Source: Planctomycetia bacterium
GTDB taxonomy: Bacteria > Planctomycetota > Planctomycetia > Pirellulales > PALSA-1355
Reading direction: 5' to 3'
Assembly: GCA_041497975.1 (NCBI GenBank)
Contig: JBGQHN010000001.1
Coordinates: 3,888 to 67,887 of the forward strand
Length of the DNA stretch: 64,000 nucleotides
Part shown: positions 37,037 to 59,366 of the stretch, piece by piece
Position numbering within the stretch: position 1 is the first letter of the stretch
Layout of the letters: every line of letters begins with the position of its first letter
Translations under genes and position numbers: made by a program
Notes under the pieces: model-generated
What the model was told of the DNA's origin: nothing
Seen by the model: the letters and a program-made list of their open reading frames with translations, nothing else
Database searches by the model: none

Positions 37037-37372
37037 AACTGGCTCCAAAGCTCGCTCCCCAAGCACGAGGCGTGCGGGAGGAGACAATCGTTAACGCCCG
37101 AACCGGACGCTATTTAGGCGTCCGGGCAATTATAGAAGGCGGGCAGATTGCCGGAAAGAACGAAAACCGGCCGCCAGCACCCCGCGGGCATCAACTATTG
37201 AGTCCGTGGTTGATCATTGGCCGAGGGGCGACCAACGGAAGCCCTGAAAAACGTGGGATTACGGCTCGAATTGCCAAGCGATTTCTCTCTGTGAATTAAT
37301 AACTGCCAGAAGCGGCCCAAAACGCAGCCACACGGTCGGGAAAACTTTCTTGTCGCTCGCGTCGATTCTAAT

Positions 37373-38990: not shown

Positions 38991-39665
38991 TCAGCGTGCC
39001 CCGGCGGTCTCGGCCGCTTGCGCGATCGGTTTATCTTCGTCTCCGCCCTCGGCTTCAACAACCTGCAATAGCTTTTTGAGCATCTCCACCTGATCGGGCT
39101 CCGTCAGCCGAAACCGGCCGCGAACCTGTCCCTTGCGATCCACCACGCACGCCCGGTCCGTATGCGCGCCCTTTTCCACCGAAATCTGGAAAAAATCCTG
39201 GCCGACGCGCTCAATCAGCCCCATGTCGCCGGTCAAGAAGGTCCACCGCGCCGGATCGGCATGGAAATGCTGCGCATATTTCGTTAACGCCTCGGGCGTG
39301 TCGTTTTCCGGATCGCAGGTGATACTGACATAGCGCACGTTGCTTTGTGGGTTGGTCTGTTGAATCGCGGCCAGGGCTTGATTCAACCGCCAACATACGG
39401 CCGGGCAGTTGGTGAAAAAGAAACTCGCCACCCACACCTTTCCCCGCAGGCTATTGGAGTCAAACGGCCGACCGGATTGATCCGTGAGCGTAAATTCGCT
39501 CAGCGGTGGCCGCTTTGACATCGGCTGCCGTGCCATAAGATCCGGCGAGGCGGGCCCGACGATGGCCTCATTCGTGGACTGGATGTGGCGCGCGGCGACA
39601 TACGAAGCGTAAATCGCGACCAGGCAACTGGCCAAAATGAGCCAGAATTTCACGGAACCTGTCAT
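38991..39665 (-). CDS. SCO family copper chaperone / thiol-disulfide protein
   Basis: 224 aa from ATG 39665 (ATGA overlap with the permease stop). N-terminal TM anchor, FFFTNCPAVC (CxxxC) and a thioredoxin-fold remainder with conserved His (AQHFHADP). Confidence 0.9.
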   Translation of the reverse strand: MTGSVKFWLILASCLVAIYASYVAARHIQSTNEAIVGPASPDLMARQPMSKRPPLSEFTLTDQSGRPFDSNSLRGKVWVASFFFTNCPAVCWRLNQALAAIQQTNPQSNVRYVSITCDPENDTPEALTKYAQHFHADPARWTFLTGDMGLIERVGQDFFQISVEKGAHTDRACVVDRKGQVRGRFRLTEPDQVEMLKKLLQVVEAEGGDEDKPIAQAAETAGAR

Positions 39666-40540
39666 GGCATATCTCCCGTGGTCCGCTGTCCCGCAATCTT
39701 GCAGGCCAGGGCAAACATCGCTACGGCAAAAAAAACAGTAACGATCCAACACGTGGACAATTGCGGCGTATCGAGCGGCAGCGGGGCATCGGCCACGTTC
39801 CAATACATTAGCCGCCGCAAGCCCGCGACGCCGTACGTCAGCGGGTTGAGGTGCATGGCAAGCGTGAGACACCACGGGATCCAGCTCATGCCGGCCTCGG
39901 TGGGCGGCGGCGGAAAGAACGCGCCGCTCAGCAGCCACATCGGCATCAAAAACACGCTCATGATCGCGTGAAAGCCCTGTGTCGAGTCCATCCGCCAGGC
40001 AATCACCAATCCCAGCGAAGTCAGCGCCAGCGAAACAAGCGTCAGTAGCAGTACGATCGCGATCAGCATGAGCGCCGAGAAGTGGAGTCCCAGGGTCAGG
40101 CCCAGCGCCAAGAACACAAGCCCCTCGACCATCGCAATGAGGGAGCCACCGAGCACCTTTCCCAATACCATCGACCAGCGTGGAATCGGCGCCACGAGCA
40201 CCGATTGCAAAAACCCTTCGCGGCGATCTTCGATCACCGAGATCGTGGCAAAAATGGCCGTGAACAGCAAAATCAAGACCAGCGCGCCCGGGAAAAAGTA
40301 CTCCCGGTACGAGAGCCGCGCCGCATCCTCGCCGGCCAGGCGAAACGTTGGTCCCAGCCCCGCGCCAAACAACAGCCAAAAGATGACTGGCTGTCCGATG
40401 GCTCCGAACACGCGATTTGGCTGCCGCACGAAGCGCACCCATTCCCGCTGGCAAAGCGTGGCCGCGGCCAGCCAGGGCCGGCTGGCCGACTGAAGCGGCG
40501 CCGCGATGGCCCCAGACGTGGGAGCGATCAGTTGTGCCAT
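39662..40540 (-). CDS. ABC-2 type transporter permease
   Basis: 292 aa from ATG 40540, 2 nt after the ATPase stop. CQREWVRFVRQPNRVFGAIGQPVIFWLLFG followed by six hydrophobic helices, ABC-2/NosY-like. Confidence 0.8.
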   Translation of the reverse strand: MAQLIAPTSGAIAAPLQSASRPWLAAATLCQREWVRFVRQPNRVFGAIGQPVIFWLLFGAGLGPTFRLAGEDAARLSYREYFFPGALVLILLFTAIFATISVIEDRREGFLQSVLVAPIPRWSMVLGKVLGGSLIAMVEGLVFLALGLTLGLHFSALMLIAIVLLLTLVSLALTSLGLVIAWRMDSTQGFHAIMSVFLMPMWLLSGAFFPPPPTEAGMSWIPWCLTLAMHLNPLTYGVAGLRRLMYWNVADAPLPLDTPQLSTCWIVTVFFAVAMFALACKIAGQRTTGDMP

Positions 40541-40542
40541 GG

Positions 40543-41511
40543 TTACCTCGCCAGCGCCGGCGCAGTCCCATCGCTTGGCGCCTGCCAAAACCGATGACCC
40601 GTGCGAGCGATGAACACGTCCTCGAGCGTCGGCTTGCCCAGCGTGACCGATTCGATCTGGCCGGGAAAAGCCTCCACGAGTCGCGCGATCCACTGGTGAC
40701 CGTTCGCCTCTTCCAGCCGCACGAAACCGTCGAGGACCTGTGGTTCGCGGCCGAATTGGACGCCGATGGCGGAAGCGAGCCGGCTCGGGTCGGACGTTTG
40801 AATCGTGATCGAGTCGCCGCCAACCGTGGCCCGCAAGGCGTCTGGCGTGTCGAGCGCCACCAGCCGCCCTTCGTGCAAGATCGCGATGCGATCAGCCTTG
40901 TCGGCCTCCTCGAGCAAGTGCGTCGTAAGCACGACGGTCACGCCCTGGTCGTCGCGGAGCGTGCGGAAATAATTCCATAAGTCGCTACGGGCAGCGGGAT
41001 CAAGACCCGTGCTCGGTTCGTCCAGCAGCAGCAAATCGGGATAATGGATCATTCCCTTGGCCAGTTCAACGCGGCGCCGCAAACCGCCCGAAAGGGACTC
41101 GACCCGGTCCCGCGCGCGATCGGACAAGCCGAGGCGGTCGAGCATCGCGGCCGCTCGCTGGCGCAATTGTGAGCCGGACAAACCATAAAGGTGGCCCTGG
41201 TGACGAAGATTTTCCGCCACGGTCAGTTTTTTGTCCAAGCTCGGCGACTGAAATACCACGCCGATTGCCGACCGGACCTGCGCGCTCTGGCGGCGTAGAT
41301 CAAACGACAGGACCTCGGCCTCTCCCTGCTGGAGCGGAATAAGCGTCGACAGCAGGCGAAACAACGTCGTCTTGCCGCCGCCATTGGGCCCGAGAAAAAC
41401 GAAGATTTCCCCCCGCGCCACGCTGACGCTCAAGTCGTCAAGCGCCTTGCGCCGTCCGTAATGATGGACCAGGTGCGAAACCCGGATCGCGGGCGAGTGG
41501 TTCATGATCAT
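40543..41511 (-). CDS. ABC transporter ATP-binding protein
   Basis: Walker A GPNGGGKTT, signature LSGGLRRRVELA, Walker B LLLLDEPSTGLD. Confidence 0.9.
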   Translation of the reverse strand: MIMNHSPAIRVSHLVHHYGRRKALDDLSVSVARGEIFVFLGPNGGGKTTLFRLLSTLIPLQQGEAEVLSFDLRRQSAQVRSAIGVVFQSPSLDKKLTVAENLRHQGHLYGLSGSQLRQRAAAMLDRLGLSDRARDRVESLSGGLRRRVELAKGMIHYPDLLLLDEPSTGLDPAARSDLWNYFRTLRDDQGVTVVLTTHLLEEADKADRIAILHEGRLVALDTPDALRATVGGDSITIQTSDPSRLASAIGVQFGREPQVLDGFVRLEEANGHQWIARLVEAFPGQIESVTLGKPTLEDVFIARTGHRFWQAPSDGTAPALAR

Positions 41512-41592: not shown

Positions 41593-41710
41593 AGCCGCCT
41601 AATGCCTGTTGAAGAACTGGGACAGGCACCTGGCGGACATGGTTTTTCACGCTTTTTCGGACGATCTGGCTCGGAGCCAGTCCCAGTTTTTCAACGGCCG
41701 CCTAATGGCT
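41593..41710. repeat. Hairpin-forming intergenic repeat, copy 2 (REP/MITE-like)
   Basis: Homologous to 17414-17525. The arms gcctgttgaagaactgggacaggcacc (41604-41630) and ggagccagtcccagtttttcaacggc (41673-41698) are imperfect inverted repeats. An 11-nt direct repeat gccgcctaatg lies at 41594-41604 and 41697-41707. The right end overlaps the last codons and TAG stop of the subunit IV-like gene. Confidence 0.8.
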
Positions 41711-42157
41711 TTCGCCGCTGGATGGACTTTCCTTAGCCCTACCGTGAGGCGAATCGCCGTGGCGTACGGTCGCCTTGTGCGGGGCGCGGGGCGCGGCCAT
41801 GTAAAGTTCACGTTCTTCAGACAGCCAGTGGCCACGCAGGCCGATGTCGGGCACAAGCGCTAAGATCAAAAAGATCGACATAAAGGCGGCCGGAACCGTC
41901 AGCACATACTTCCAGCTCGCTTCATATTTTACGTGCATAAAGAACAAGATGACCAGCATTGCCTTGGTGCATGATACGGCCATCATGAACGCCCAGCCGA
42001 TTTTGGGCTGCTCATGGAAGGGCCAATAGTCCGAGTACGTGAAGAACGAGGCCGTCGTCAAAAGGCACAGCGCTATAAAAACGTAGATGTACTGCGCGAT
42101 GCCGTCGTGACTCCCCTCAGAGTGCTCGGCCGCGTGTGCGTGGGCATGTTCCGACAT
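41702..42157 (-). CDS. Cytochrome c oxidase subunit IV-like small membrane protein
   Basis: 151 aa from ATG 42157. The His-rich N-terminus is followed by YIYVFIALCLLTTASF..., AFMMAVSCTKAMLVILFFMHVKYE and a third helix, the pattern of prokaryotic caa3/aa3 subunit IV. A ~45-aa C-terminal tail follows. Confidence 0.75.
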   Translation of the reverse strand: MSEHAHAHAAEHSEGSHDGIAQYIYVFIALCLLTTASFFTYSDYWPFHEQPKIGWAFMMAVSCTKAMLVILFFMHVKYEASWKYVLTVPAAFMSIFLILALVPDIGLRGHWLSEERELYMAAPRAPHKATVRHGDSPHGRAKESPSSGESH

Positions 42158-42204
42158 CAAAGTTACTCCGCGCGTGTCGCCAGCGAATGCGTCACCAAAT
42201 AATC

Positions 42205-43212
42205 TTAGAACAAATACAATAGCGGGAACAGGAAGATCCACACCAGATCGACGAAGTGCCAGTACAAACCGATGTTCTCCACGATTCCCGCCCGCATGAC
42301 GCCCAGGGTCATGGGAACCATGATCGCAAACACGATCAGGCCGATAAGCACGTGCAGCGCGTGAAACCCGGTCAAGAGAAAATAAGTGCTGGCCCACATA
42401 TTGCCGCCGGGGATCACAATCGGCAACTTGAGCCACTCGTGAACGTCGTTCAGTCCTTCCTCGTGACCGTGCCCGGTGGGAAGCGGCATGATGCGATCGG
42501 CCAGTTCCTGTAAAGCCACGTGTCGGACGGTATTGTCGGAGTTGGTGGCGGCCGTCTTTTCCTGCTCGAGTTCAAAGTCCGTCAACTCTTTGACGACGGC
42601 TAATCGTTCGCGCACGTCGATGATCGCCGAGTCGGCGTCGACCGCCTCGGGCGACAGCTTGGCGTTGAGCGCGTCCTCCTCGGCCTTCAGCTTCGATTCC
42701 AGATCGTTCAAGCGAAGTCGCACGGCCGCGGCATAGTTCAGATCGGGCTTTTCATACACCCGGCTGTGCGGTTTCCAGGGATAAATGCCGTGTGAAAACT
42801 TGGCATTGTATTCATACAGCTTCACGCCGAGAAATACGCTGCCCAATGCGAACGTCAGGAGCAGCCAACCCTTGGCCGGGCCCGCCCTATTTGCCCGCGC
42901 GGCCTCCAATCCCAACACGATGGTGACGCTGGAGCAGATCAGCACGAACGTGTTGAAAGCCCCGATCGGTTCGCTCAAGTGGACCTCGCGCGGCAAGGGC
43001 CAGGTCGGGGCCCCGAAGCGGAGCACGATGTACGTGCCGATCAGCCCGGCGAAGAACATGATCTCGGTCGACAGGAACAGCCAAACGATCAACTTGCCGT
43101 TTGGGATCGGCAGCCCCGGGTGATACTCGAGGCCCACATGCGACCCCCCATGGTCATCGTGCGCATGGTCGTCCGCCGAGTGCGAAGCGGCGTGTGTGAG
43201 TGCTTGGGCCAT
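42205..43212 (-). CDS. ctaE: Cytochrome c oxidase subunit III (with long soluble insertion)
   Basis: [32 protein letters not shown] and [20 protein letters not shown] are subunit III motifs. A ~120-aa charged helical insert lies between the third and fourth helices. Confidence 0.85.
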
Positions 43213-43260
43213 ATTCGCGCTATAAGCCTTTCGTTGACACGGAAAAAACGTCTCGTTTCG

Positions 43261-44163
43261 TCACGCCAGCGGTCCCAAGACCAGCAATCCCATCATGGCA
43301 GGCAAATAGACTAGCGACGCCAACAGCAAGCGCCTGGCGGACTTGTCGCTTAGTTCGAAGAAAAACCAAATCGCGCACGCCAATTGGGCCGCACCCAAGA
43401 CGAGCGCCCACGCGAAATAAATCTCGCCGGCCGGCTGCAACAGGCAGGGAACCAGGCTGACAGGAATTAATACCAGTGACGACACGATGGCCTGGGCGCC
43501 CGCGCGAACCCCGCTGGGATCCACCGTGCTGAGCATTTGCAAACCCGCGCCGGCATACTGCCGGCGATAGATCCAGGCGATGGCCATGAAATGCGGGAAC
43601 TGCCAAAGAAACACGATCAAGAACAGCGACCAGGCCCGCAAATCAAACGGCGCTCCGGTGGCCGCCCAACCCATCAGCACGGGCAATGCGCCCGCCACGG
43701 CGCCGACGGCCGTGTTGAGCGGCGTGCGCGTTTTGAGCGGCGTATAGATCCACACGTAGAGCGTCCACGTAAGCAGGCCCAGCGCGGCGGTCTTGACCCC
43801 CACGGTCAGCGCCAGATAGGCCAGTCCGGCCAGGATCGACAGCGTGCTGAAGCAAACGACCTGACAGCCGGTCAAGCGTCCCGCGGGCAACGGCCGGTCG
43901 GCCGTGCGCGGCATTTGGGCGTCGGTGGCGCGTTCCAACCATTGATTGAGCGCGCTGGCGCTGGCCGCGACCATGGCGGTGCCGACGAGCGCATGGATCA
44001 GCACCCAACCGGCCGGCGGACCCCAGTTAGCCACAAACGCCGCCACCGCGACGGTAACCAGCACCATCGCCGAGATTTTCGGCTTCGTGAGCTCGCAATA
44101 ATCGGTAACTCGCACCGTCCACGCCGCGCGTTGATCTTCGATCGACAACGAAGTCATGCTCAT
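43261..44163 (-). CDS. ctaB: Protohaem IX farnesyltransferase (haem O synthase)
   Basis: UbiA-family motif ALNQWLERATDAQMPRTADRPLPAG, with nine hydrophobic helices. ATG 44163 forms an ATGA overlap with the ctaA stop. Confidence 0.9.
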   Translation of the reverse strand: MSMTSLSIEDQRAAWTVRVTDYCELTKPKISAMVLVTVAVAAFVANWGPPAGWVLIHALVGTAMVAASASALNQWLERATDAQMPRTADRPLPAGRLTGCQVVCFSTLSILAGLAYLALTVGVKTAALGLLTWTLYVWIYTPLKTRTPLNTAVGAVAGALPVLMGWAATGAPFDLRAWSLFLIVFLWQFPHFMAIAWIYRRQYAGAGLQMLSTVDPSGVRAGAQAIVSSLVLIPVSLVPCLLQPAGEIYFAWALVLGAAQLACAIWFFFELSDKSARRLLLASLVYLPAMMGLLVLGPLA

Positions 44164-45173
44164 CGGACGCTCCCCATGAGCCACGGCGTCTGGCCGGCAC
44201 GCAGTGCAGGCCGCCAGGCCAGTCGCACCGACCTCAACGCCAACAGTAAACTCGTCGCGAGAATCAGCGAGCCGATCGCCACGTGGGCCGTTGCAAACAG
44301 CGCCTGGGTAGCGCTATCGGCGCCGACAACGTGGCCCGCCGCGAAATTGAAGTCTGACATCCAAGCAGGCCAACCATATTTCGTGACCCAGGTCGCCGCG
44401 CCGAGACCGACTTGTGTCACGATCAAGCCTGCCAGGGCCAGCGCGGGCCGCCACAGTGACCGCTCAGCGCGCTGCGTGCGATAAACCTGCGCGGCCAACG
44501 CGATGGCATGCACGACCAGCGCGGCGGCGATCGCCAAATGGAAAAAAAGCGCGGTGCGGAAGTCAGACGCCCGGGCCCCGGCCGGCAGATGTCGCAACTG
44601 CGACCCCACGACAAGTTGGCCAAAGGCCAGCAAGGTTGTCAACGCAGCGAGTCGTTCGATGGACGCCAGTCCGGCCAAGGTCTGCGCGGCGGCCGATTGC
44701 CAGCGGCGGGAAGTAATCGCGGCCAACGCTACGGTGAAGGCAAAGAAAGCCGGAGCAACGCATCCGTGGATTTGCGCCAACTTCACTTCGTCCTCGATGA
44801 CGCGCATACCTCCCAGGGCGCCTTGAAGGATCACGGCTGCCAATGCGACCAGCGCCAGTCGGCGAACCAGCGGCCGGCTGCGCCACGTCGAGACGCAAAG
44901 AGCGATCGTTGTCATGCCCACGAGCGTGCCGAACAGCCGATGGCCATGCTCGATGAACAATTTCCAGGGACCGAAGATCCACGTTTGCCAGGGGTAGAGA
45001 AACAGGTTGTAGCCATACGTGTTCGGCCAATCCGGCACCGCCATACCAGCTCCGTAGGTGGTGACGAGCCCGCCGATCCAAATCATCGGGAACGTGGCGC
45101 AGACCAGCGCCACCGCCCAGCGATGTGGCCATGCACTCTCAAATTCAGGACTCGGTCGGTTCACGTTCGTCAA
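44160..45173 (-). CDS. ctaA: COX15/CtaA family haem A synthase
   Basis: PMIWIGGLVTTYGAGMAVPDWPNTYGYNLFLYP and conserved His-containing helices (IEHGHRLFG; QIHGCVAP; FFHLAIA). The start is uncertain: TTG 45173 or GTG 45164 are the first in-frame starts that do not overlap ctaD. The track ORF start at 45416 would overlap ctaD by more than 200 nt. Confidence 0.75.
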   Translation of the reverse strand: MTNVNRPSPEFESAWPHRWAVALVCATFPMIWIGGLVTTYGAGMAVPDWPNTYGYNLFLYPWQTWIFGPWKLFIEHGHRLFGTLVGMTTIALCVSTWRSRPLVRRLALVALAAVILQGALGGMRVIEDEVKLAQIHGCVAPAFFAFTVALAAITSRRWQSAAAQTLAGLASIERLAALTTLLAFGQLVVGSQLRHLPAGARASDFRTALFFHLAIAAALVVHAIALAAQVYRTQRAERSLWRPALALAGLIVTQVGLGAATWVTKYGWPAWMSDFNFAAGHVVGADSATQALFATAHVAIGSLILATSLLLALRSVRLAWRPALRAGQTPWLMGSVR

Positions 45174-45201
45174 TGCTCGCGCTGGTTCGTTGATCTGAAG
45201 C

Positions 45202-46998
45202 TTAGTGTGCCGGCGGTTGCTGTGGCGGGTTCTGCTGTTCGTCGGGGGGCGGTTGGGTTTGCGGATAGAAATCGGTATCGACTTCCGGCGAAGCATATTC
45301 ATAGGGGCCGCGGTAGACCACGGGTTGAAAGTCGAAATTGCCGTGGCCCGGTGGGCTGGGAGCCTGCCATTCGAGTCCGTTGGAGTGCCAGGGATTGCGG
45401 TCGGCACGCGGACCAAGAAACAAACTCAAAATGAAGTTAAGGGCGAAAATGATCTGCACGGCGACCATGCCGATAGCGCACCAGGTCATGAAGATATTGA
45501 GCGACTGCAGATGGTGGAATGTTTGGTAGTGATACGGATCGGCCAGGCGTCTTGGGAACCCGACCACGCCCAGGATGTGCATCGTGAAAAATGTGCCGTT
45601 CAAAAACAGGAACGTGAAGAAGAAATGCACCTTGCCCCACTTCTCGTTCATCATGCGACCGAACATCTTGGGATACCAAAAGTAGATCGCGCCAAAGACG
45701 CCCATCGCCGTCCCGGCAAACAGGACGTAATGAAAATGGGCCACGATAAAGTAGGTGTCGTGAATAAAGATATCGACCGGCGTGGCTGCCATGAAAATGC
45801 CCGACAACCCGCCAATGATGAACATCGACACAAACGACAGCGCGAATAACATAGCCGTGGTGAAGCGAATGTTGCCGCCCCATACGGTCCCCAGCCAGTT
45901 GAACGTCTTAATGGCGCTGGGCAACGCGATCATCATGGTCGAGACCATGAAGGTCATGCCCAAGGCCGGGTTCATGCCGGAGACGAACATGTGGTGGCCC
46001 CACACGATGAACCCTAGTCCGGCGATGCCGGCGATCGAGTAGATCATCGGCTTGTAGCCGAACAGCGGTTTTCGGGCAAAGCAGGCGATGATGTCGGAGA
46101 CCATGCCCATCGCCGGCAAAATCATGATGTAAACCGCCGGATGCGAGTAGAACCAAAACAGGTGTTGCCACAGTAACGGTTGGCCGCCGCCCGAGGCCAT
46201 CGCCGCATTGTTGGCGGTCCACCCGTCTGGAATAAAAAATCCGGTGCCCAACAGGCGGTCCATCAATTGCATGAATCCCGCGGCCGTCAACACCGGCAGC
46301 GCGAAGGCCTGCAGAATGGCGGTGATGAACATGGCCCAGATCGTCATGGGGAGCCGGAACATCGTCATTCCCGGAGCCCGCATCTGGATGATGGTGGTCA
46401 GATAATTGACCGAACCCATCATCGACGAGACGCCCACGAACGTCAGGCCGATCAGCCACAACGTCTGGCCGTTGAGATCCGTCAGCGCCAGAGGCGGATA
46501 GGAAGTCCAACCGGCCTTGGCAGCACCGCCCGAAACGAAGAAACTGGAGCCCATGGCGATGAACGCTGGCCACATGAACCAGTAACTCAGCATGTTCAAC
46601 GTGGGAAAGGCCATGTCTTCGGCGCCGATCATCAGCGGGATCAAAAAGTTGCCGAAAGCGCCGGCCAGGATGGGGATGATCACGAAAAAAATCATCACGG
46701 TGGCATGCATCGTAAACAGCACGGTGTAGAACTCGGGCGAGATTTGTCCGCCTTCGCCCGAGAACAGCATCTTGCCGATGACCGGCATTTCAGCCCAGGG
46801 CCAGGCCACTTGCCAGCGGATGCCCAGGGCCAAAAGCCCGCCCACCAAAAACCACAACAGCGTGGAGAAAAGGAACTGGATGCCGATGACCTTGTGATCT
46901 CTGGAGAACACATAGGTGGTCAAAAACCTGCCGGCATGCGCGTGGCTTGCGGCGCCGGCGACGTCGTGTGCGTGGGAACCGACCGTGGTCGTGCTCAT
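45202..46998 (-). CDS. ctaD: Cytochrome c oxidase subunit I (haem-copper oxidase, A-type)
   Basis: 598 aa. Carries LFWFYSHPAVYIMILP, WGHHMFVSG and HFHYVL haem/CuB ligand regions. ATGA overlap with the subunit II stop. Confidence 0.97.
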   Translation of the reverse strand: MSTTTVGSHAHDVAGAASHAHAGRFLTTYVFSRDHKVIGIQFLFSTLLWFLVGGLLALGIRWQVAWPWAEMPVIGKMLFSGEGGQISPEFYTVLFTMHATVMIFFVIIPILAGAFGNFLIPLMIGAEDMAFPTLNMLSYWFMWPAFIAMGSSFFVSGGAAKAGWTSYPPLALTDLNGQTLWLIGLTFVGVSSMMGSVNYLTTIIQMRAPGMTMFRLPMTIWAMFITAILQAFALPVLTAAGFMQLMDRLLGTGFFIPDGWTANNAAMASGGGQPLLWQHLFWFYSHPAVYIMILPAMGMVSDIIACFARKPLFGYKPMIYSIAGIAGLGFIVWGHHMFVSGMNPALGMTFMVSTMMIALPSAIKTFNWLGTVWGGNIRFTTAMLFALSFVSMFIIGGLSGIFMAATPVDIFIHDTYFIVAHFHYVLFAGTAMGVFGAIYFWYPKMFGRMMNEKWGKVHFFFTFLFLNGTFFTMHILGVVGFPRRLADPYHYQTFHHLQSLNIFMTWCAIGMVAVQIIFALNFILSLFLGPRADRNPWHSNGLEWQAPSPPGHGNFDFQPVVYRGPYEYASPEVDTDFYPQTQPPPDEQQNPPQQPPAH

Positions 46999-47819
46999 TC
47001 AGTATCCCCTTGTTCCACGGGCTGAGAGTCTTCCGTGGCAGTTTGCTCGAGATATTTTTGTTCCAGCCACTTGTTGAAGTCCTCCCGCGACTCGACCGTC
47101 AAGCGGCCTTTCATTTTGTAGTGGCCCCAGCCGCACAGTTCCGCGCAGACCAGGTCGTACACACCGGTGTCGGTCGCCCTGAACCAAACCGGTATCTTCA
47201 TGCCCGGCACGGCGTCCTGCTTGACGCGCATGTTGGGCAAAAAGAAGCTGTGCAAGACGTCGGCGCTCTTCAAGTCGATCAAGATCTCTTCATTCACCGG
47301 CAAGTGCAGATCGTTGACCACGAAGATGTCGTCGCTGTCTCCCAGCTTGCCTTGGGCCTTCAGGCCCGGATAGCGCAAACGCCATTCGAACTGCCGGGCG
47401 GTTACTTCGAGCGTCGGCGGCATGTCGTCGGCCGTTCCGAAGATGCCGTCGGGACCCGCTGCCGGATTGCGGATCTTCGAATCGGCCCAGGCGTTCATCT
47501 GATAAATGGCAATGAACAACAGCACGGCCGAGGGGATGATCGTCCACACGATTTCCAGGCTGTGGCTACCGTGCGTGAACTTTGCCGGCTTGACCTGGCC
47601 CTTGCCGTCGTAGCGCCACAGAAACCAGAACAATACCATTTCGGTAACGACGAATACGGCGCCGGTCAGCCACAAGATGAAATAAAACAGGTGATCGATC
47701 GTGTGACCGTGCTGCGAGATATCCGTTGGCAGCCAGTGCTTGTACCACGGCGCAACGACAAACGAGGCCACGCCCAGGACGGGTACCAGCAAAAACACCA
47801 CGCTCCAAAACTTCCCCAC
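46995..47819 (-). CDS. ctaC: Cytochrome c oxidase subunit II
   Basis: Two N-terminal TM helices and the CuA motif HSFFLP...CAELCGWGHYKM. GTG start. Confidence 0.92.
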   Translation of the reverse strand: MGKFWSVVFLLVPVLGVASFVVAPWYKHWLPTDISQHGHTIDHLFYFILWLTGAVFVVTEMVLFWFLWRYDGKGQVKPAKFTHGSHSLEIVWTIIPSAVLLFIAIYQMNAWADSKIRNPAAGPDGIFGTADDMPPTLEVTARQFEWRLRYPGLKAQGKLGDSDDIFVVNDLHLPVNEEILIDLKSADVLHSFFLPNMRVKQDAVPGMKIPVWFRATDTGVYDLVCAELCGWGHYKMKGRLTVESREDFNKWLEQKYLEQTATEDSQPVEQGDTE

Positions 47820-47955: not shown

Positions 47956-49209
47956 CTAAAAATTCTTGGCCTGGCTGACTCGCAACTGCTCCTGGCGCCG
48001 CGGCTCGCTGATCGGCTCGTACGGCAGTGACAGGACGTAATCCACCAGGTTCCAAATCTCTTCGTTTTTCAGCGTGCCTTGGGCACCCGGGGTGGCCGGG
48101 CCAACGCCGGGCATCGGCACGCCATTGATTCCCGCGTACATGCGACGATAGATGTCCAAAGGCCGGCGACCGCCGCGATAGATGCCTTGCCGCAAATTGC
48201 GCGGAATGGCGTTGCGCGGAGGCAGCGCGTCGGTCTGCAAGACCGAATGGGCGAAAGCGATTTGAGCTTCCGCCTGACTTCGATCGGCGCTCGACATCTC
48301 GCTGTTCTCGTTGATCGACTTTTGCTGGTCTTCGAGCCGCTTCGCCATCTCGACCAACGGCTTTGTCCAGTCGTCATAATCGTTCGTCTGGCCGTCACCC
48401 AGCGCGCTGGGTCCGTGGCATTTCACGCAATTGGCCGCCGTGCCGTAGAATAATTCGCGCCCCTTGGCGACCGACGCGGCCACGTCGGCGATCGATCGCT
48501 TTTCGGGTTGCACGATTTTTTCGGAGGCCGTGCGCCAATTCTCGGCAATCGGCTTGACGATTTCGTCGACCAGCACGGCCCGCGTGGTTTCAAGTCGTTC
48601 GCCTTCGCCCAAGGCCGTCAGCGCGTTGATCAGATCGATTTCCGTCTGGCCTCGCATGCTGAGATACTTCACGTACTCGACAAGCGCGTTGATTTGAGCG
48701 TCGGGCAACAGATCGAATGAGGGCATCGCGGTGCCGGGAACGCCGTGCCTGACCACCATCTCCAGGTCGTACTCGGTCGGCTTGGCGGCGCGTTCGGTCG
48801 ACTTGAACTTGAACTTGCCCTGCCGGTAATCGCGCGGATAGGGATTGAGCACCATCGCCGTCGGACCCTGACCGTCGCCGGTCGTGCCGTGACAATGGCC
48901 GCAATGGCGGCGGTAGAGCCCGGTCTCACGGCCGAACTGATCGCTGCGCACCGGGCCGGCCGCGACTTGCAGTTTCTTCAAGTCCAAGCTGGTGTCGCTC
49001 AGCACGAAGGGCTCGTCGGGCGTGCCGTACAAGGCCTCGAGAACGTTGGCCAGCTCTTGCCGCTGGTCGGGCGGAATCTGCGCGTCGGCAATCGCCACCA
49101 TGTTGAGATGGAATTGCGGCGAGTCGCTCTTGGAGCAGCCCGTGGCCAGTAGGGCCAACAGCGCAAGGCCGGGAAAAAACCGCGAATGGCCCAACAGAGT
49201 CTTTTTCAT
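47956..49209 (-). CDS. Dihaem c-type cytochrome lipoprotein
   Basis: ATG 49209 gives MKKTLLGHSRFFPGLALLALLATGCS (lipobox). Two CxxCH motifs are present (CGHCH, CVKCH). Confidence 0.8.
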   Translation of the reverse strand: MKKTLLGHSRFFPGLALLALLATGCSKSDSPQFHLNMVAIADAQIPPDQRQELANVLEALYGTPDEPFVLSDTSLDLKKLQVAAGPVRSDQFGRETGLYRRHCGHCHGTTGDGQGPTAMVLNPYPRDYRQGKFKFKSTERAAKPTEYDLEMVVRHGVPGTAMPSFDLLPDAQINALVEYVKYLSMRGQTEIDLINALTALGEGERLETTRAVLVDEIVKPIAENWRTASEKIVQPEKRSIADVAASVAKGRELFYGTAANCVKCHGPSALGDGQTNDYDDWTKPLVEMAKRLEDQQKSINENSEMSSADRSQAEAQIAFAHSVLQTDALPPRNAIPRNLRQGIYRGGRRPLDIYRRMYAGINGVPMPGVGPATPGAQGTLKNEEIWNLVDYVLSLPYEPISEPRRQEQLRVSQAKNF

Positions 49210-49327: not shown

Positions 49328-50242
49328 CTATCTGAGCGCTCCAGCTGGCACTTCCAAAGCCAGGTCCATCGTTTGGTCGGGCTCAAGCTTTACTTTGAAA
49401 CGTCCCTTTGGGGACCATTTGAGTTCCTTTTTCGGTAGAACAACGGCGCCGTTGGGGCCGGCCCCGCGCTCGTGCCAGACTTGGATTTCGACCTCCTCGC
49501 CGGCCGGCAGATTAGCGAGCTCGAACGAACCATCGGCTTTCGTCACCGCAAAGTACTTGTCCTTCCGCGGCAGCAAGTAGGCCTTCATCCACGGATGAAT
49601 ACTGCACGAAACCGGCGCCGGCAGGGCTTCTTCCTTGGTGGGGATGTACAGCAGCGATTGACCGACGGGCAAGTTCTGGTTGAAGGCGGCGCCCTTGGCC
49701 GGATCGATTTTCGTGTTGTGGCCGACCGGGTCGCTGTTCTTCACGTTGACCCCACGATTGACCTGGCAGGCCGCGACGTGCGTCAGGAACATGCAGCCTT
49801 TTTGATCGAAGTCGAGCGGTTCCACCTTGCTATCCTTGTCGAGCGGCTGCGCCGATTCATGCACGCGCTTGACGCGCGGCGCGTAGACGACAATGTTGGA
49901 AATGCCTCCGTCGGAGCCGATCACCAGCGAGTTGTCGACGATCCCCTGCCCTTTCCCGCAGACCTCGGTGTCTTTGTCCACATTCAGCTTGCCAGGCGTG
50001 GGCGGCGTGCCGACGAATTTGAACGTGCCGCGCAGCGTGCCCCAGCCCGTACCGGTGGCTGCGACGTCGGCGCTCGTTTCACTACTCGCCTCCGCGCCGC
50101 TGGCCTTGAGCTTTTCCCGAATGTCGAGCGCCACTTGCTTGTCCGCGCGCGGTCCGGCCGTGGCCGGCCGGCCACAACCCGCCAGCGCTACTGCGGCGAC
50201 GGGGCCGACAATTGCCAAAAAAACCACAAACTTCGTGTGCAT
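49328..50242 (-). CDS. Cupredoxin-like (type-1 copper) lipoprotein with C-terminal carboxypeptidase-regulatory-like beta domain
   Basis: ATG 50242 gives a lipobox (VAAVALAGCG). Putative T1Cu ligands are SDPVGHNTKI (His) and CSIHPWM (Cys-x2-His-x2-Met, as in amicyanin). This is followed by ADGSFELANLPAGEEVEIQVWHE. It is a paralogue of 50283-51050. Confidence 0.7.
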   Translation of the reverse strand: MHTKFVVFLAIVGPVAAVALAGCGRPATAGPRADKQVALDIREKLKASGAEASSETSADVAATGTGWGTLRGTFKFVGTPPTPGKLNVDKDTEVCGKGQGIVDNSLVIGSDGGISNIVVYAPRVKRVHESAQPLDKDSKVEPLDFDQKGCMFLTHVAACQVNRGVNVKNSDPVGHNTKIDPAKGAAFNQNLPVGQSLLYIPTKEEALPAPVSCSIHPWMKAYLLPRKDKYFAVTKADGSFELANLPAGEEVEIQVWHERGAGPNGAVVLPKKELKWSPKGRFKVKLEPDQTMDLALEVPAGALR

Positions 50243-50282
50243 ACGTTGTATTCCTTCGGCCGACCCGTCAGGCGTCAAACGG

Positions 50283-51050
50283 CTACTTGAAAATCGAGCC
50301 GCTGACCTTGATGTCGCCAAGGTTGTTTTCCCCAGGTTTGATTTTGTACTTGAAATTGCCCTTGGAGTCGGACGTGCCGCCCTTGAAGCCGGCGTTTCTC
50401 AAGTAGCCTGCTTTTTCGTGCCACAGTCCGAATTCGAGTTCTTTACCAGCCGGCAAATCCTTGATGGTGAAGGTACCGGTCTTGTCCGAGACGGCAGCGT
50501 AAGGATCGGTGCGAACGATCAACCACGCGCCCATCCAGGTGTGGATATTGCAGCCCACCTTGACCGGCCGGACTTCCGGCTTGGCGAATTTATGTTTGAG
50601 CGGATCGGCCCCGGCCGCCAGGATCGGATTGATTCCATCGTTGCTGATCGAAGCGATGTTGGTGTTGTGGCCCGTGGGGTCTGAGTTCTTCAACAACAGG
50701 GTTTGCGACGTGCGCACGACGAGTACATGCGGCTCGAAGTGGCAATTCTTGTTGTCCAGTTCCACGTTGTCCTTGGCGCTCGATTCATACGCGGGATTGA
50801 CCGGCACGTTCTTGGATTTGAGTATGATGACCGCATTGGCCAGCCCGCCTTTGGCATCGACCAACAGGTCTTCATCCGTAAGCTTGACCTTGCACATTGG
50901 ATCCTTCGAGGTATCGATCGGCGCGGGCGTTGGCGCCTTGCCGTCGTAGACGAACCGGCCAGTCAGGGTGCCCCAATCGGCGGCCAGGGCGCCAGTGGCC
51001 AGCAACACCGTCAGGGCGAACGACGCGCCCGCTATCATAGATTTGCACAT
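50283..51050 (-). CDS. Cupredoxin-like (type-1 copper) exported protein with C-terminal carboxypeptidase-regulatory-like beta domain
   Basis: Signal peptide. FEPHVLVVRTSQTLLLKNSDPTGHNTNI (a cupredoxin strand with the HN ligand) and CNIHTWM (C-x2-H-x2-M), then KTGTFTIKDLPAGKELEFGLWHE. Confidence 0.7.
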   Translation of the reverse strand: MCKSMIAGASFALTVLLATGALAADWGTLTGRFVYDGKAPTPAPIDTSKDPMCKVKLTDEDLLVDAKGGLANAVIILKSKNVPVNPAYESSAKDNVELDNKNCHFEPHVLVVRTSQTLLLKNSDPTGHNTNIASISNDGINPILAAGADPLKHKFAKPEVRPVKVGCNIHTWMGAWLIVRTDPYAAVSDKTGTFTIKDLPAGKELEFGLWHEKAGYLRNAGFKGGTSDSKGNFKYKIKPGENNLGDIKVSGSIFK

Positions 51051-51051
51051 A

Positions 51052-51282
51052 TTATTTTTGGTCTCCTTGCTCGGCCGAAGGCGTTCCGCCGCCGGAGGTC
51101 GAGTCGGTAGAAGCGGCCGCGGGGTCCTTGGGGCCGGATTCGGTGCCTAAATCCACGGTGGGAGCAGTGGCGTTTTGTGAGGCTCCTGAGGGAGGCGGCG
51201 CGGGCTTGCCGCAGCCGGCCGTCGGTAGCACGGCCGCCAACAGCAACAAGGCATTATAAAACGCGCGTCGTGCATTGACCAT
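51052..51282 (-). CDS. Small lipoprotein, low-complexity (76 aa)
   Basis: ATG 51282 is preceded by GGAGAGG. Lipobox LLAAVLPTAGCG followed by a Pro/Ser/Gly-rich tail. It is tightly packed between the octahaem stop and the cupredoxin start. Confidence 0.45.
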   Translation of the reverse strand: MVNARRAFYNALLLLAAVLPTAGCGKPAPPPSGASQNATAPTVDLGTESGPKDPAAASTDSTSGGGTPSAEQGDQK

Positions 51283-55755: not shown

Positions 55756-57057
55756 TCAAAAATTCAAAAAATACTCGGGGATGCTCACGATATATTTCAT
55801 GTTCAGCGTCCAACGCAGCACCATCTTCAGCGGCAGCGCCGCCATGAACAACAACAGGTTGGACATCAGCATGAACCGCAAAAATCCCATCTTGACGAAA
55901 TAGCTCCTGAAAATCGTGGTCGCCATCAAGGGCGGCAACAGCGCGAAATACGCGAACAACAGCGCGATGCCAAACCACTCGCGATACAAGATCATGCCGA
56001 TCTCGACGTACCACGGGCTGCCTGAGGCGGCTTTGGGCAGGGCCTGGCCCATCCACGCGATCCAGAAGTATTGCGACAGGTCGACGTTGTTGAGCGCCAG
56101 CACCTTGTGCGGATCCCAATACTCGAACGGCCCGAAGATATTCCAGTTCGGTCCGCGGAAAAACGTGCCCAGGATGATCAGCGTGATCCACATTTCCAGG
56201 AATCCGAACTGGAAAATCAAGTAGCTGAACTTCCGCTCTTCGATCGTGAAATAGCCGTTGCCCCTCTTGTTGAAATCCAAGAACGGAATGGCCATCAATC
56301 CGAAGATGATCAAGCTGGGCAGCAGCACGCCGGCCATCCAGGGATCGTAATAGACGAGCATTTCCTGCAGGCCCAGGAAGTACCAGGGGGCCTTCGAGGG
56401 ATTGGGCGTTTTCACGCTGCTGGCCGGTTCCTCCAAGGGGGCCTGCAGGCCGATTCCCCACACCAGTAGAAACGCGGTCAGGGCGATCATGCAAATCAGT
56501 TCCGTGTAGACCAGGTCCGGCCACACCAGAACTTTTTCGTTGTCCAGCTTTTCGGTGGGTGGCAAACCCTGCTTGGCCCGATTGTCGTTTTCCACGGCCT
56601 TGGCCGTGGCCAACCAGGTAAAGAATCCCAACAGGAACACCAGGCCGACGATGGGGACGTTGTCGGGCTTGGTGACGATCGCGGCAAAGTTTGGGTCAAC
56701 GATCGACATTCCCATGACGACCAGCGCCAGATTCAGCCCCACCCAGGCGACCATTGGCTGCACGAAGAAACGGCGCCCCAGGAAAAACACGGCCAACAGC
56801 GTGGTGGTGCCCACGCTGTAAACCACGGGGCCGGTGGCGCTGTTGACGGCTTCGCGCCACGATTGGGGCAATCCTGGCGGGCTGCCGCCAAACGCCGCCG
56901 ACGCGACCGCCACGAGAATGAACGAGACCGCAACCCACACAATCGCTTGAGCGACGTTGTGCTTCTTGTGCCAGAAGTAAAAGGCCAGCACGGCGTTCAT
57001 CGCCGCCAGGCACAAGTAATATCCGCCCAAAAATCCGGAAACGTCGGAACCGTGCAT
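55756..57057 (-). CDS. Cytochrome b C-terminal domain / subunit IV-like protein (enlarged, 433 aa)
   Basis: Core VWPDLVYTE...PNPSKAPWYFLGLQEMLVYY corresponds to the PEWY region of cytochrome b C-terminal/PetD. Extra hydrophobic helices are present both N- and C-terminal to this core. Confidence 0.85.
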   Translation of the reverse strand: MHGSDVSGFLGGYYLCLAAMNAVLAFYFWHKKHNVAQAIVWVAVSFILVAVASAAFGGSPPGLPQSWREAVNSATGPVVYSVGTTTLLAVFFLGRRFFVQPMVAWVGLNLALVVMGMSIVDPNFAAIVTKPDNVPIVGLVFLLGFFTWLATAKAVENDNRAKQGLPPTEKLDNEKVLVWPDLVYTELICMIALTAFLLVWGIGLQAPLEEPASSVKTPNPSKAPWYFLGLQEMLVYYDPWMAGVLLPSLIIFGLMAIPFLDFNKRGNGYFTIEERKFSYLIFQFGFLEMWITLIILGTFFRGPNWNIFGPFEYWDPHKVLALNNVDLSQYFWIAWMGQALPKAASGSPWYVEIGMILYREWFGIALLFAYFALLPPLMATTIFRSYFVKMGFLRFMLMSNLLLFMAALPLKMVLRWTLNMKYIVSIPEYFLNF

Positions 57058-57168
57058 ATTTTGTTCGCTTGTTGAGTCACGCGGACGTCAATGGCCGCCA
57101 CTCGTCACTTGTTTCCAACCATCAACTCATGCGCCTGCTCGAATCCGCGGTCGGGTAGGAACTGGTCT

Positions 57169-57942
57169 CTACAGGGGACCACTGATGCCGCCGTCCTTGC
57201 GGACGCGCCAAAAATGGATGGCCAGCAGCAACGACACGGCCAACGGAATCGCGATGCAATGCAGAATATAGAATCGATTGAGCGTTTCTTCGCCCACGAA
57301 GCGCGCGCCAAGCAGCGCAAAGCGCGCATCCGAGGCGTTGGTGATCATGTCAATTCCCTGGATATTGAGCAACTGTTGCCCGGGACCTTCGTGGCCCAAA
57401 ATCGGCGTGGCCCGCGCCATGTTCGAACCGACCGTGATGGCCCAGATCGCCAACTGGTCCCAAGGCAGCAGGTAGCCGGTGAACGACAACATCAGCGTCA
57501 TCAGCAGCAAAATCACGCCGATGACCCAATTGAATTCACGCGGCGGCTTGTAGCTGCCGGTCAAAAACACGCGGTACATATGCAACCACACCGTGATCAC
57601 CATCGCGTGCGCGCCCCAGCGATGCAATTCGCGCAAGATGCCCAGCGAAGTGACGTCTCGCAAGCTCAATATGTCGTTGTAGGCCCATTCGAGCGTGGGG
57701 CGGTAATAGAACATCAACAGCACGCCGGTCACCGTCTCGACCAGAAACAGAAAGAACGTGACGCCGCCCATGCACCACGTGTAGCTCAGCGCAATGCCCT
57801 GCTTCTTGATCGATACCGGGTGCAGATGCAAAAAGAAGTTGGTCAGCATCACCACAATGCGGTTGCGGCGATCCTGGGGCATGGGGTGCCGGAAGATGCT
57901 CTTCCACACCTGCGACTCGCGAATCATTTCGCCAATGGACAT
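57169..57942 (-). CDS. Cytochrome b6-like (cytochrome b N-terminal domain)
   Basis: [44 protein letters not shown]...WLHMYRVF and [14 protein letters not shown] are the four-helix haem b domain motifs. Confidence 0.9.
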
Positions 57943-58130
57943 CGTTTGCTACCGCGCTTTCGAAAAAAGAAAGAAGTCCAACTATCGAGGCGCACTCGCG
58001 CGCAGGTCCGAGCGACAAGGTGAAGACGGTTCGTGCTTACGAAGGCCGCCGGGCGCCCGGCGGCCGCAGGCGGACGCGTCCTGCGAAACGGCGCAGCATC
58101 TCACGCGACTAGGGCGGCACTCCCCCAGGC

Positions 58131-59204
58131 TCAGACCGCGACGTACGAAGCAGGGTCGCTCCACTGGCCGATTTCTTCCTGAAAAAGCTTGCTCTTGTCG
58201 ACTTCCAACTGGCCGTCGTCGGCGATGCGAATGGCATAACGCTCGAGCGGCCGCGGCGCAGGCCCCTCGAAATTGATGCCATCCTTGTAAAAACCGCTGC
58301 CGTGGCAGGGACATTTGAACTTCTGTTCGCCCTCCAGCCAATTGGGCGTGCAGCCCAAATGCGTGCAGACCGACCGCAACGCGTAAATCTCGGGCTTTCC
58401 GTTGTACTCGTAGTTGACCACCCATACGCCGTACTGCGGGATGAACTTGGTTTCCACTTGCCCAGGAGAAAAGTTGCTCGGGAACCCGACCTTGAACTTG
58501 CTCGGGGGTTCCGTCAGTACGTTGGGATACATGAAGCGGGCTGTCCCCAACGTCCACAGTCCCAGCGTCGTGGCCAACGACGTGAAGCCAATCCCCAAGA
58601 AGGAACCCAACATCATGTCGCCGATAAAACTGCGGCGGGTTTGTTCGACGACGGGCGCGGGCTTTGGCATGGCGTAGTCGGGCTTGACCGGCATTGGCGG
58701 AACGACAGCTTTCGCCTTCTCCGGCTTGGGCGCCGGTTTCACGTCGGGCGCCTTGAGTGCTGCTTCAGCCTTCGACATGGGACCCGGCTTGACCGCGCTG
58801 CGAGCTTCAGCCAGGATGCTGCCCGTATCTTTCGGAGCGGCGGGGGGCGCTTCTGCCGGCGCGGCTTCGGCGATTGCCGGTTTGGGTGATTCTTTTTTCA
58901 CCGGCGCGGCTGCTGCAGGCTTCGCGGCCGCTGGTTTGGATGGGACCGAGGCGCCTTCCTTTTTTTCAGCGCGAGCGGCTGCCAACATTTCAGCAACGCT
59001 CGGTCGCGCGCCACCCGAGAGCTTTGGCGCGGCGGGTTTCGCCACGGCGGCTGGCGCCTCGGCGGGCGAAAGCGCCGATGCACCATCGATGGCCGGTGTT
59101 TCGGCTGGTGGTGCCGCCGCGCCTGCCTCCGGGGACTTACTCGCGTCGGCCTTGCGTGCCGCGGCCAAGATCTCGGCCACGGACATCTTCTTCTTGTCCG
59201 CCAT
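58131..59204 (-). CDS. Rieske iron-sulfur subunit of a cytochrome bc-type complex, with long N-terminal extension
   Basis: CTHLGCTPNW...CPCHGSGF Rieske boxes. TAT-like TRRSFIGDMMLGSFLGIGF lies ~190 aa from ATG 59204 and is preceded by an Ala/Pro/Lys-rich region. TTG 59225 is an alternative start. Confidence 0.9.
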   Translation of the reverse strand: MADKKKMSVAEILAAARKADASKSPEAGAAAPPAETPAIDGASALSPAEAPAAVAKPAAPKLSGGARPSVAEMLAAARAEKKEGASVPSKPAAAKPAAAAPVKKESPKPAIAEAAPAEAPPAAPKDTGSILAEARSAVKPGPMSKAEAALKAPDVKPAPKPEKAKAVVPPMPVKPDYAMPKPAPVVEQTRRSFIGDMMLGSFLGIGFTSLATTLGLWTLGTARFMYPNVLTEPPSKFKVGFPSNFSPGQVETKFIPQYGVWVVNYEYNGKPEIYALRSVCTHLGCTPNWLEGEQKFKCPCHGSGFYKDGINFEGPAPRPLERYAIRIADDGQLEVDKSKLFQEEIGQWSDPASYVAV

Positions 59205-59366
59205 GCCCAGTACCCTCAGGCCCAAGCGATCATTTGCATCGCCACCAACCGCAAAGTGGACGCAAACGATCCAGCCAGCCTTAAATCCAAGCTACAGACA
59301 ACCCCCGAACCGCCTTCCAGCACTGTCCGCGGCAGGGATTGTGACATTTTTAACGATCTATTTCAA

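Follow-up and report, generated by a model that had tools for sequence, protein, structure and literature searches.

By which carrier do electrons leaving complex III reach complex IV in planctomycetes? A study of planctomycete genomes reported neither a typical cytochrome c gene nor a plastocyanin gene between the two complexes (PMC5673643). The question is raised again by a 64,000-nucleotide stretch of contig JBGQHN010000001.1 from a Planctomycetia bacterium of the order Pirellulales (assembly GCA_041497975.1; hereafter the window), in which two adjacent genes, termed cupA and cupB, are placed between the genes of a Rieske/cytochrome b (bc) complex and those of an aa3-type oxidase. Computational analysis of the pair and its homologues supports a lineage-specific, nested-domain, mostly lipid-tethered pair of type-1 copper carriers, which probably forms the electron link from the bc complex to the oxidase. 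Window positions are used throughout, and all relevant genes lie on the minus strand (Table 1).

The tandem itself is a matter of observation. As described in a first-pass annotation made from the sequence of the window, adjacent genes of 304 and 255 amino acids (aa) are present, the former (cupB) with a lipobox and the latter (cupA) with a signal peptide. The adjacency stands and the order is to be reversed, as the 255-aa gene comes first in transcription. The 76-aa lipoprotein gene said to precede the pair was recovered as well (lipo76, lipobox PTAG-C). The same holds for the location of the pair, with a cytochrome carrying eight CXXCH motifs upstream and a lipoprotein with two CXXCH motifs, CtaC and CtaD downstream. 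Signal peptides and lipoboxes were judged from the sequence. Read in this way, the N-terminus of cupA (MCKSMIAGASFALTVLLATGALA/ADWG) is a Sec signal peptide without a twin arginine, and cupB, which measures 304 aa when counted from an ATG inside a 330-aa open reading frame (ORF), carries the lipobox ALAG-C23. Both proteins contain every motif previously quoted for them, namely G.L.G.F.[FY].G..PTP, KNSDP.GHNT, C.IH.WM and LPAG.E.E...WHE. Their proposed paralogy is far beyond chance because they share 34% identity across approximately 235 residues (E = 5e-40). In a neighbour-joining tree, cup genes in first and second position fell mostly into separate clades, cupB belonging to an orthologue clade of its own, which makes the duplication an old one; in the same tree cupA was seen to have been duplicated again later in some cases.

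Structure and profile searches for a cupredoxin fold, as suggested by the first-pass annotation, both returned cupredoxins. AlphaFold2 (AF2) models were built from an alignment of 38 sequences and reached predicted local distance difference test scores (pLDDT) of 91.3 for cupA and 87.8 for cupB, with predicted template-modelling scores (pTM) of 0.85 and 0.86, respectively. For both models the top Foldseek matches in the PDB were exclusively cupredoxins, with a probability of 1.0 and a target-normalised template-modelling score (TM-score) of about 0.7. Leading the cupA list were proteins from Bacillus anthracis (4hcf) and Nitrosopumilus (5fc9), both at E values of approximately 4e-5 to 1e-4, together with amicyanin, pseudoazurin, plastocyanin and CuA domains. 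The cupB list was led by amicyanin, the type-1 (T1) domain of NirK and plastocyanin, and the superposition on amicyanin gave a root-mean-square deviation of about 2.1 Å across 88 of 105 residues (target TM-score 0.70). Azurins appeared in these lists solely as loop-engineered variants, and lower down.

Two profiles were compared with the sequences of the PDB. Profile A3, built from 109 diverse family members that had been pre-selected for the ligand motif, and thus biased towards it, matched amicyanin at E = 6.4e-6 (29 bits) and the wild-type protein 1aac at E = 5e-5; the T1 domain of NirK and Nitrosopumilus 5fc9 (E = 0.003) were matched as well. Profile A1, built from 38 sequences without motif selection, produced the same amicyanin alignment at an E value of only 0.46. 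The alignment covers the entire cupredoxin domain and places the family motif GHN on His53-Asn54 of amicyanin, and the motif C-n-I-H-p-W-M on Cys92-Thr-Pro-His95-Pro-Phe-Met98. The identities of the amicyanin copper ligands are established, and their counterparts in cupA and cupB are listed in Table 1. From the superposition and the alignment to amicyanin we infer that the four predicted ligands cluster in space. The role of Asn54 in amicyanin is among the topics discussed in PMC12723479.

The aligned residues are strongly conserved. His, Asn, Cys, His and Met are retained in approximately 99 of the 101 cup genes from syntenic loci (see below), at overall identities down to 35-45%; in the two exceptions Met is replaced by Glu in one gene and the other gene is frameshifted. 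That the proteins bind no copper at all would be difficult to square with the strict retention of precisely the four ligand positions when overall identity is so low. Taken together, the confident models, the cupredoxin-only structural matches, the profile match to amicyanin and the near-invariant ligands uphold the earlier assignment of a cupredoxin with a type-1 copper site, and cupA and cupB are predicted to be type-1 (blue) copper proteins of the periplasm and to belong to a family specific to planctomycetes. Two other candidate sites were considered. His108 as a fifth ligand is invariant in close cupA orthologues, but varies between H, R, Q, P and I in the wider set and is therefore not a ligand. 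A binuclear CuA-type site is ruled out by the single Cys in the loop. Glu in place of the axial Met (C.IHPWE or C.IHPFE) was noted in some paralogues (L015:10904-11602, P0180, P0189 and P0224) and would give a different copper site; in L015 the gene with Glu stands between the other two of an array of three copies within a bc-aa3 cluster.

The cupredoxin is one of two domains. In the AF2 model of cupA, two N-terminal strands (residues 26-36 and 74-77) and five C-terminal strands (185-250) flank the eight strands of the cupredoxin (95-180), a 2 + 5 count which is compatible with a seven-stranded sandwich. Intact cupA matched the CarboxypepD_reg models PF13620 and PF13715 below threshold and by its C-terminal part alone (E = 1e-3 to 5e-2). 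When residues ~39-65 and ~81-180, which comprise the cupredoxin domain and the segments beside it, were removed in silico and the N- and C-terminal remainders joined, the CarboxypepD_reg match improved to E = 2.6e-6 with an alignment that crosses the splice, at a score of 27.8 bits against a Pfam cut-off of 32.2. PF13620 was matched at E <= 0.01 by 37 of the 109 family members. The cupredoxin thus appears to lie nested within a prealbumin-like (CarboxypepD_reg-like) sandwich of seven strands. The beta-sandwich "tail" of the first-pass annotation is hence real as a motif, but probably not as a separate appended domain, since it seems to pair with the N-terminal segment into one sandwich. Cys53 and Cys103, each more than 90% conserved, may form a disulfide joining the two parts. 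The top 50 PDB matches cover the cupredoxin part only, and a full-length counterpart was not seen among them; the query-normalised Foldseek TM-scores of about 0.3 likewise imply that none of these structures covers the whole two-domain protein.

Homologues of the pair are numerous. Among candidates sharing words with the query 549 matches were obtained, with more than 500 close homologues of cupA, and an exhaustive HMMER scan of representatives of 50%-identity clusters returned 8820 matches with E <= 1e-3, of which 4673 had E <= 1e-10. The full motif N.D..HN...C..H..M was present in 123 of the best 150 cluster representatives. For the gene context, one genome per species was scanned and 57 loci were returned, essentially all from Planctomycetota (Pirellulales, Lacipirellulaceae, Bremerella, Stieleria and one Phycisphaera). 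One complete cluster of the planctomycete type (L033, CAZPEM010000054.1) is filed under a metagenome-assembled genome (MAG) of Chitinophagaceae and is probably mis-binned. Approximately 40 of the 57 loci share the order Rieske protein, N-terminal part of cytochrome b, C-terminal part of cytochrome b, octahaem cytochrome c, in some cases an anchor gene, cupA, cupB, dihaem cytochrome c, CtaC and CtaD; most of the others are contig-end fragments with part of the same order.

Two deviations from this order are informative. In a protein of 1809 aa (P0188) an orthologue of the octahaem cytochrome c runs in frame into a Pro/Ala-rich linker of about 50 residues and then into a cup module that retains its ligands. 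Three independent assemblies contain the gene, after which come genes of 258 and 306 aa, i.e. of the size of cupA and cupB, and by those of the dihaem cytochrome c and the oxidase. In Bremerella the bc and oxidase genes are separated and the cup pair remains with the oxidase; in cultured Bremerella cremea the order is cup, cup, dihaem cytochrome c, CtaC and CtaD, with purine and pyrimidine biosynthesis genes upstream. The synteny in about 40 genomes, the fusion to the octahaem cytochrome and the co-segregation of pair and oxidase in Bremerella back the role of dedicated copper carriers between bc complex and oxidase that the first-pass annotation had proposed from gene position, and this is retained here as the probable role. 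A third paralogue with the full motif (260 aa) was found in another respiratory cluster, which was examined gene by gene (L030:3347-14967). Here the order is a molybdopterin oxidoreductase of 1211 aa, a NarH-like 4Fe-4S protein, a NarJ-like protein, the cup protein, a MOSC protein, a Rieske protein, a full-length cytochrome b and a multihaem cytochrome c. A closely related paralogue lies at approximately 10076-10741 of L042, where a similar weak cytochrome c match about 8 kb upstream provides partial evidence for the context; the L042 contig belongs to the same MAG as the closest relative of the window.

Most members of the syntenic loci are predicted to be held at the membrane. Nearly all cupB orthologues carry a lipobox, as cupB itself does, and many cupA orthologues are lipoproteins too, with low-complexity linkers of 40-60 residues behind the anchor. 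The cupA of the window has no anchor of its own and carries a plain signal peptide. Its counterpart is found one nucleotide (nt) upstream of the cupA ATG, where lipo76 ends: lipo76 is homologous to the N-terminus of the long form of cupA (305-320 aa) seen in about 12 genomes, and in about 15 genomes, including that of the window, the anchor is a separate ORF ending in ...G[DE]QK directly before cupA. By homology, lipo76 is thus read as cupA's lipid anchor and Pro/Ala-rich linker in detached form, and cupA orthologues are predicted to be either lipoproteins or secreted with a separately encoded anchor. The relation of lipo76 to cupA looks like a gene fission, or a fusion, with the orphan anchor retained, and was seen across loci L001-L026.

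These observations are best accommodated by a locally confined, tethered type-1 copper relay from the octahaem cytochrome c to the dihaem cytochrome c and/or CuA, to which we assign a probability of roughly two in three. Menaquinol would be oxidised by the split Rieske/cytochrome b complex, and the electrons would leave it via the membrane-anchored octahaem cytochrome c, the presumed donor, to be taken up by the copper centres of cupA and/or cupB. The cup proteins would be kept close to the complexes by a lipid anchor and a flexible linker of 40-60 residues, or, in one lineage, by a linker to the octahaem cytochrome itself, and could deliver to the dihaem cytochrome c lipoprotein (the presumed partner on the oxidase side) and/or directly to the CuA site of the aa3 oxidase. 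As with copper binding and function, we infer the direction and partners of electron transfer, a tethered relay as opposed to a free shuttle, and both the reason for two copies and the division of labour between them.

Several findings weigh against this proposal. The locus already encodes two cytochromes c, one octahaem and one dihaem, which could in principle link the complexes without copper proteins; in actinobacterial supercomplexes the complexes are connected by the dihaem QcrC. The presence of two copies is not explained by any consistent difference in charge or residues: no consistent difference in isoelectric point separating cupA from cupB was found, and a single position is group-specific (N100 versus Q). 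Neither Pfam model reached its threshold, Cupredoxin_1 and Copper-bind each scoring 15.4 bits where 27 and 21.2, respectively, are required, and an NCBIfam scan of cupA and cupB returned no match. Single-sequence searches of the PDB with phmmer were similarly insensitive (best match 4hcf, E = 0.24), a significant sequence match was reached only with the broader 109-sequence profile, and Cupredoxin_1 was matched at E <= 0.01 by only 7 of the 109 family members. The curated models of Pfam and NCBIfam do not cover the cup family. Lastly, some family members lack the full set of ligands and are fused to signalling proteins, and electron transfer is thus not what the module serves in every case.

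The fusions deserve a description of their own. Among the metagenomic proteins P0121, P0124, P0131, P0237, P0241 and P0262, cup modules are joined to an extracytoplasmic function (ECF) sigma factor, to BlaR1/M56-type membrane sensors and to a kinase. The BlaR1/M56-type fusions contain two tandem cup modules and ankyrin repeats, and P0121 combines a Ser/Thr kinase, tetratricopeptide repeats and a Cu/Zn superoxide dismutase. The copper ligands are partly lost in all of these proteins except P0121. A second use of the cup fold, sensory or structural, is suggested by these fusions.

Four alternatives to the tethered relay were weighed, one of which, the absence of copper, was dealt with above. Most of the probability not given to the relay falls on a variant of the same idea, in which the cup proteins would be fixed subunits of an obligate bc-aa3 supercomplex, forming a static haem/copper wire with the prealbumin-like domain as a docking module; sulfocyanin SoxE is such a fixed subunit in the SoxM complex of Sulfolobus. 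The covalent fusion of cup module and octahaem cytochrome in one lineage, the strict co-operonic conservation with both complexes and the binding surface that an additional non-cupredoxin domain could offer would all suit such an arrangement. Conversely, the long low-complexity linkers of 40-60 residues, which are found in the fusion as well, suggest mobility over rigid docking, and the cupA of the window is anchor-less with a plain signal peptide. We consider fixed subunits unlikely, albeit ahead of the other alternatives. An extended version, held to be equally doubtful, combines an obligate bc-aa3 super-operon of Pirellulales-type planctomycetes, in which octahaem cytochrome c, two cup modules and dihaem cytochrome c make up a hybrid haem/copper wire of the periplasm and the host domain docks, with the recruitment of the module thousands of times in the phylum, including as a sensor in the fusions. 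If this were true, the fused copies would be periplasmic redox- or copper-sensing domains (of ECF sigma factors, BlaR1-type proteins and kinases), and cup would be a phylum-specific, multi-purpose copper redox module.

It is considerably less probable that the cup proteins are accessory or copper-handling factors of the oxidase, i.e. stabilisers similar to AcoP or CuA chaperones similar to PCuAC. In line with such a function, the genes lie directly upstream of those for the dihaem cytochrome c, CtaC and CtaD and accompany the oxidase where the bc genes lie apart, and the copper chaperone CupA is among the weaker Foldseek matches of cupA. For AcoP of Acidithiobacillus a chaperone-like role has been proposed besides electron transfer (PMC10804444). 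Still, both the set of ligands and their spacing correspond to a buried T1 site of the electron-transfer kind, cupA and cupB contain neither the Met/His-rich PCuAC motif H(M)x10Mx21HxM nor the Sco motif CxxxC, and a dedicated SCO1/SenC gene is located nearby (Table 1). Furthermore, one copy is fused to a cytochrome on the bc side. Among the ORFs examined around the full-ligand paralogue of L030 no copper enzyme was recognised, a point in favour of electron transfer over copper delivery.

Least probable of the copper-binding alternatives, by a small step, is that cupA and cupB act as entry points from periplasmic dehydrogenases into the oxidase in the manner of amicyanin or azurin, bypassing the bc complex: the nearest structural and sequence relatives are amicyanins, a pyrroloquinoline quinone (PQQ)-propeller protein is encoded about 12 kb away and the Bremerella operon ties the pair to the oxidase alone, but no dehydrogenase gene is conserved in the cluster and the genes mostly follow directly upon the bc-complex cytochrome, to which one is fused in one genome.

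Turning to the locus itself, the features that bear on the tethered relay are collected in Table 1. The octahaem cytochrome c has an N-terminal membrane helix and an internal PDZ domain. The latter, at residues ~371-434 (PDZ_2, E = 3e-7; PDZ_6, E = 7e-6), is unusual in a respiratory cytochrome. The dihaem cytochrome c starts at Met60 of its ORF. Beyond CtaD, in the order of transcription, haem A synthase, haem O synthase, CtaE and CtaF are encoded. The intergenic gaps between octahaem cytochrome c, lipo76, cupA, cupB, dihaem cytochrome c and CtaC are 15, 1, 40, 118 and 136 nt, and a scan of the operon for promoter and terminator consensus sequences gave no signal exceeding shuffled expectation. 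Gaps and scan are compatible with, albeit no proof of, a single operon from octahaem cytochrome c to CtaC. No further cup copies were found in the window by tblastn. The SCO1/SenC-domain ORF is situated just past the oxidase genes and adjoins an ATP-binding cassette (ABC) transporter, and a PQQ beta-propeller protein is encoded at 34577-37087, about 12 kb from the cup genes. Plus-strand ORFs at 49472-50290 and 49893-50684 overlap cupA and cupB in this genome of 61% GC; they are treated as high-GC shadow ORFs because the evidence from homology, structure and synteny is all on the minus strand.

Table 1 Features of the cup locus, in window positions; copper ligands are predicted
Feature	Position	Strand	Basis or remark
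Rieske protein	within ORF 58131-59225	minus	Pfam Rieske
Cytochrome b, N-terminal part	57169-57942	minus	Pfam Cytochrome_B
Cytochrome b, C-terminal/subunit IV-like part	55756-57057	minus	Pfam Cytochrom_B_C
Rieske and split cytochrome b genes, whole span	55756-59225	minus	
Octahaem cytochrome c, 1471 aa	51298-55713	minus	8 CXXCH; Pfam Cytochrom_C and PDZ
lipo76, small lipoprotein, 76 aa	51052-51282	minus	lipobox LPTAG-C
cupA, 255 aa, secreted, two-domain, predicted type-1 copper site	50283-51050	minus	AF2, Foldseek, homologues
cupA cupredoxin domain, residues ~92-181	50508-50777	minus	profile alignment to amicyanin
cupA predicted ligand His128	50667-50669	minus	aligned to His53; Asn129 adjoins
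cupA predicted ligand Cys167	50550-50552	minus	aligned to Cys92
cupA predicted ligand His170	50541-50543	minus	aligned to His95
cupA predicted ligand Met173	50532-50534	minus	aligned to Met98
cupB, 304-aa lipoprotein paralogue	49328-50242	minus	lipobox Cys23, linker of ~40 aa, two-domain module as in cupA
cupB cupredoxin domain, residues ~139-226	49565-49828	minus	paralogy, conservation, Foldseek
cupB predicted ligand His175	49718-49720	minus	Asn176 adjoins
cupB predicted ligand Cys213	49604-49606	minus	
cupB predicted ligand His216	49595-49597	minus	
cupB predicted ligand Met219	49586-49588	minus	
Dihaem cytochrome c lipoprotein	47956-49209	minus	2 CXXCH, lipobox LATG-C, Pfam Cytochrom_C twice
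aa3-type oxidase genes, whole span	41702-47819	minus	Pfam and NCBIfam
CtaC	46995-47819	minus	CuA motif H...CAELCGWGHYKM; without fused cytochrome c
CtaD	45202-46998	minus	Pfam/NCBIfam
SCO1/SenC-domain ORF	38991-40823		domain at residues 442-562 of the 610-aa ORF, true start uncertain

Comparison with characterised systems places the pair close to several of them and inside none. Amicyanin (MauC of Paracoccus and Methylobacterium) has the same His-Asn...Cys-x2-His-x2-Met arrangement and is the best profile match and a top structural match. It is a single domain of about 105 aa that serves methylamine dehydrogenase, whereas the cup domain is nested in a second beta-sandwich, and the mature cup proteins comprise 230-280 aa, are mostly lipid-anchored and are encoded between Rieske/cytochrome b and aa3 genes. 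No mau genes were seen among the window genes examined. The cup proteins are therefore homologous to amicyanin-type cupredoxins without being amicyanins, given their two domains and their different partner and context. As for the top fold matches of cupA, 4hcf (Bacillus anthracis "Cupredoxin_1") and 5fc9 (a purple cupredoxin of Nitrosopumilus) are small single-domain proteins with a gene context not common to cup.

In terms of gene context, halocyanin of haloarchaea is a near parallel: this lipid-anchored type-1 copper protein is likewise encoded with a Rieske/cytochrome b complex of the split-cytochrome-b kind. It belongs to another phylum and another cupredoxin subfamily, is present as a single copy without a prealbumin-like domain, and its cluster, unlike that of cup, contains neither octahaem nor dihaem cytochromes. 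It has been proposed that halocyanin is reduced by the Rieske/cytochrome b complex and passes the electrons on to a terminal oxidase (PMC3509893). Separately, the Rieske/cytochrome b-Nar-type cluster of L030, with its own cup protein, recalls the haloarchaeal Rieske/cytochrome b-Nar cluster.

The first-pass annotation had called the pair auracyanin-like. Auracyanins resemble azurin, have a longer Cys-x4-His-x4-Met loop and act together with alternative complex III, whereas cupA and cupB have a Cys-x2-His-x2-Met loop and a Rieske/cytochrome b partner. The two auracyanins A and B are paralogues, as are the cup proteins. The label holds as a functional analogy only, as the ligand loop and the fold match the amicyanin type and the partner is not alternative complex III. 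Auracyanins A and B of Chloroflexus and Roseiflexus are described in PMC10873879 as membrane-tethered blue copper proteins regarded as periplasmic acceptors of a quinol oxidoreductase. In the AcoP/rusticyanin system the gene of a membrane-attached cupredoxin accompanies those of a dihaem cytochrome c and an aa3 oxidase, as in the cup cluster; AcoP differs in its green copper site, transmembrane anchor, single domain and place in the iron-oxidation chain of an acidophile, and no homology between cup and AcoP beyond the common fold was detected. Encoded in the rus/cox operon of Acidithiobacillus ferrooxidans, AcoP interacts with the oxidase and exchanges electrons with a dihaem cytochrome (PMC10804444). 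By analogy, the cup pair may thus be likened in function to halocyanin, auracyanin, sulfocyanin and AcoP/rusticyanin, while lacking the defining features of each.

As to what is new, the Joint Genome Institute (JGI) pipeline labels cupA "plastocyanin" and cupB "hypothetical"; the fold of one copy had accordingly been picked up automatically. Annotation pipelines mostly call cup proteins "hypothetical", and no account of these proteins from planctomycetes came up in the literature searches. Their pairing, nested architecture, conserved place between bc and aa3 genes and proposed role are undescribed in the literature searched. The locus of the window and the approximately 40 syntenic loci suggest a specific and testable answer to the gap between complexes III and IV, namely a conserved, lipid-tethered pair of type-1 copper proteins. 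The natural series of tethers, with the anchor fused, detached or replaced by a cytochrome, is well suited for studying how the confinement of redox carriers evolves. Moreover, the result implies that environmental bacteria of a widespread group need copper to respire.

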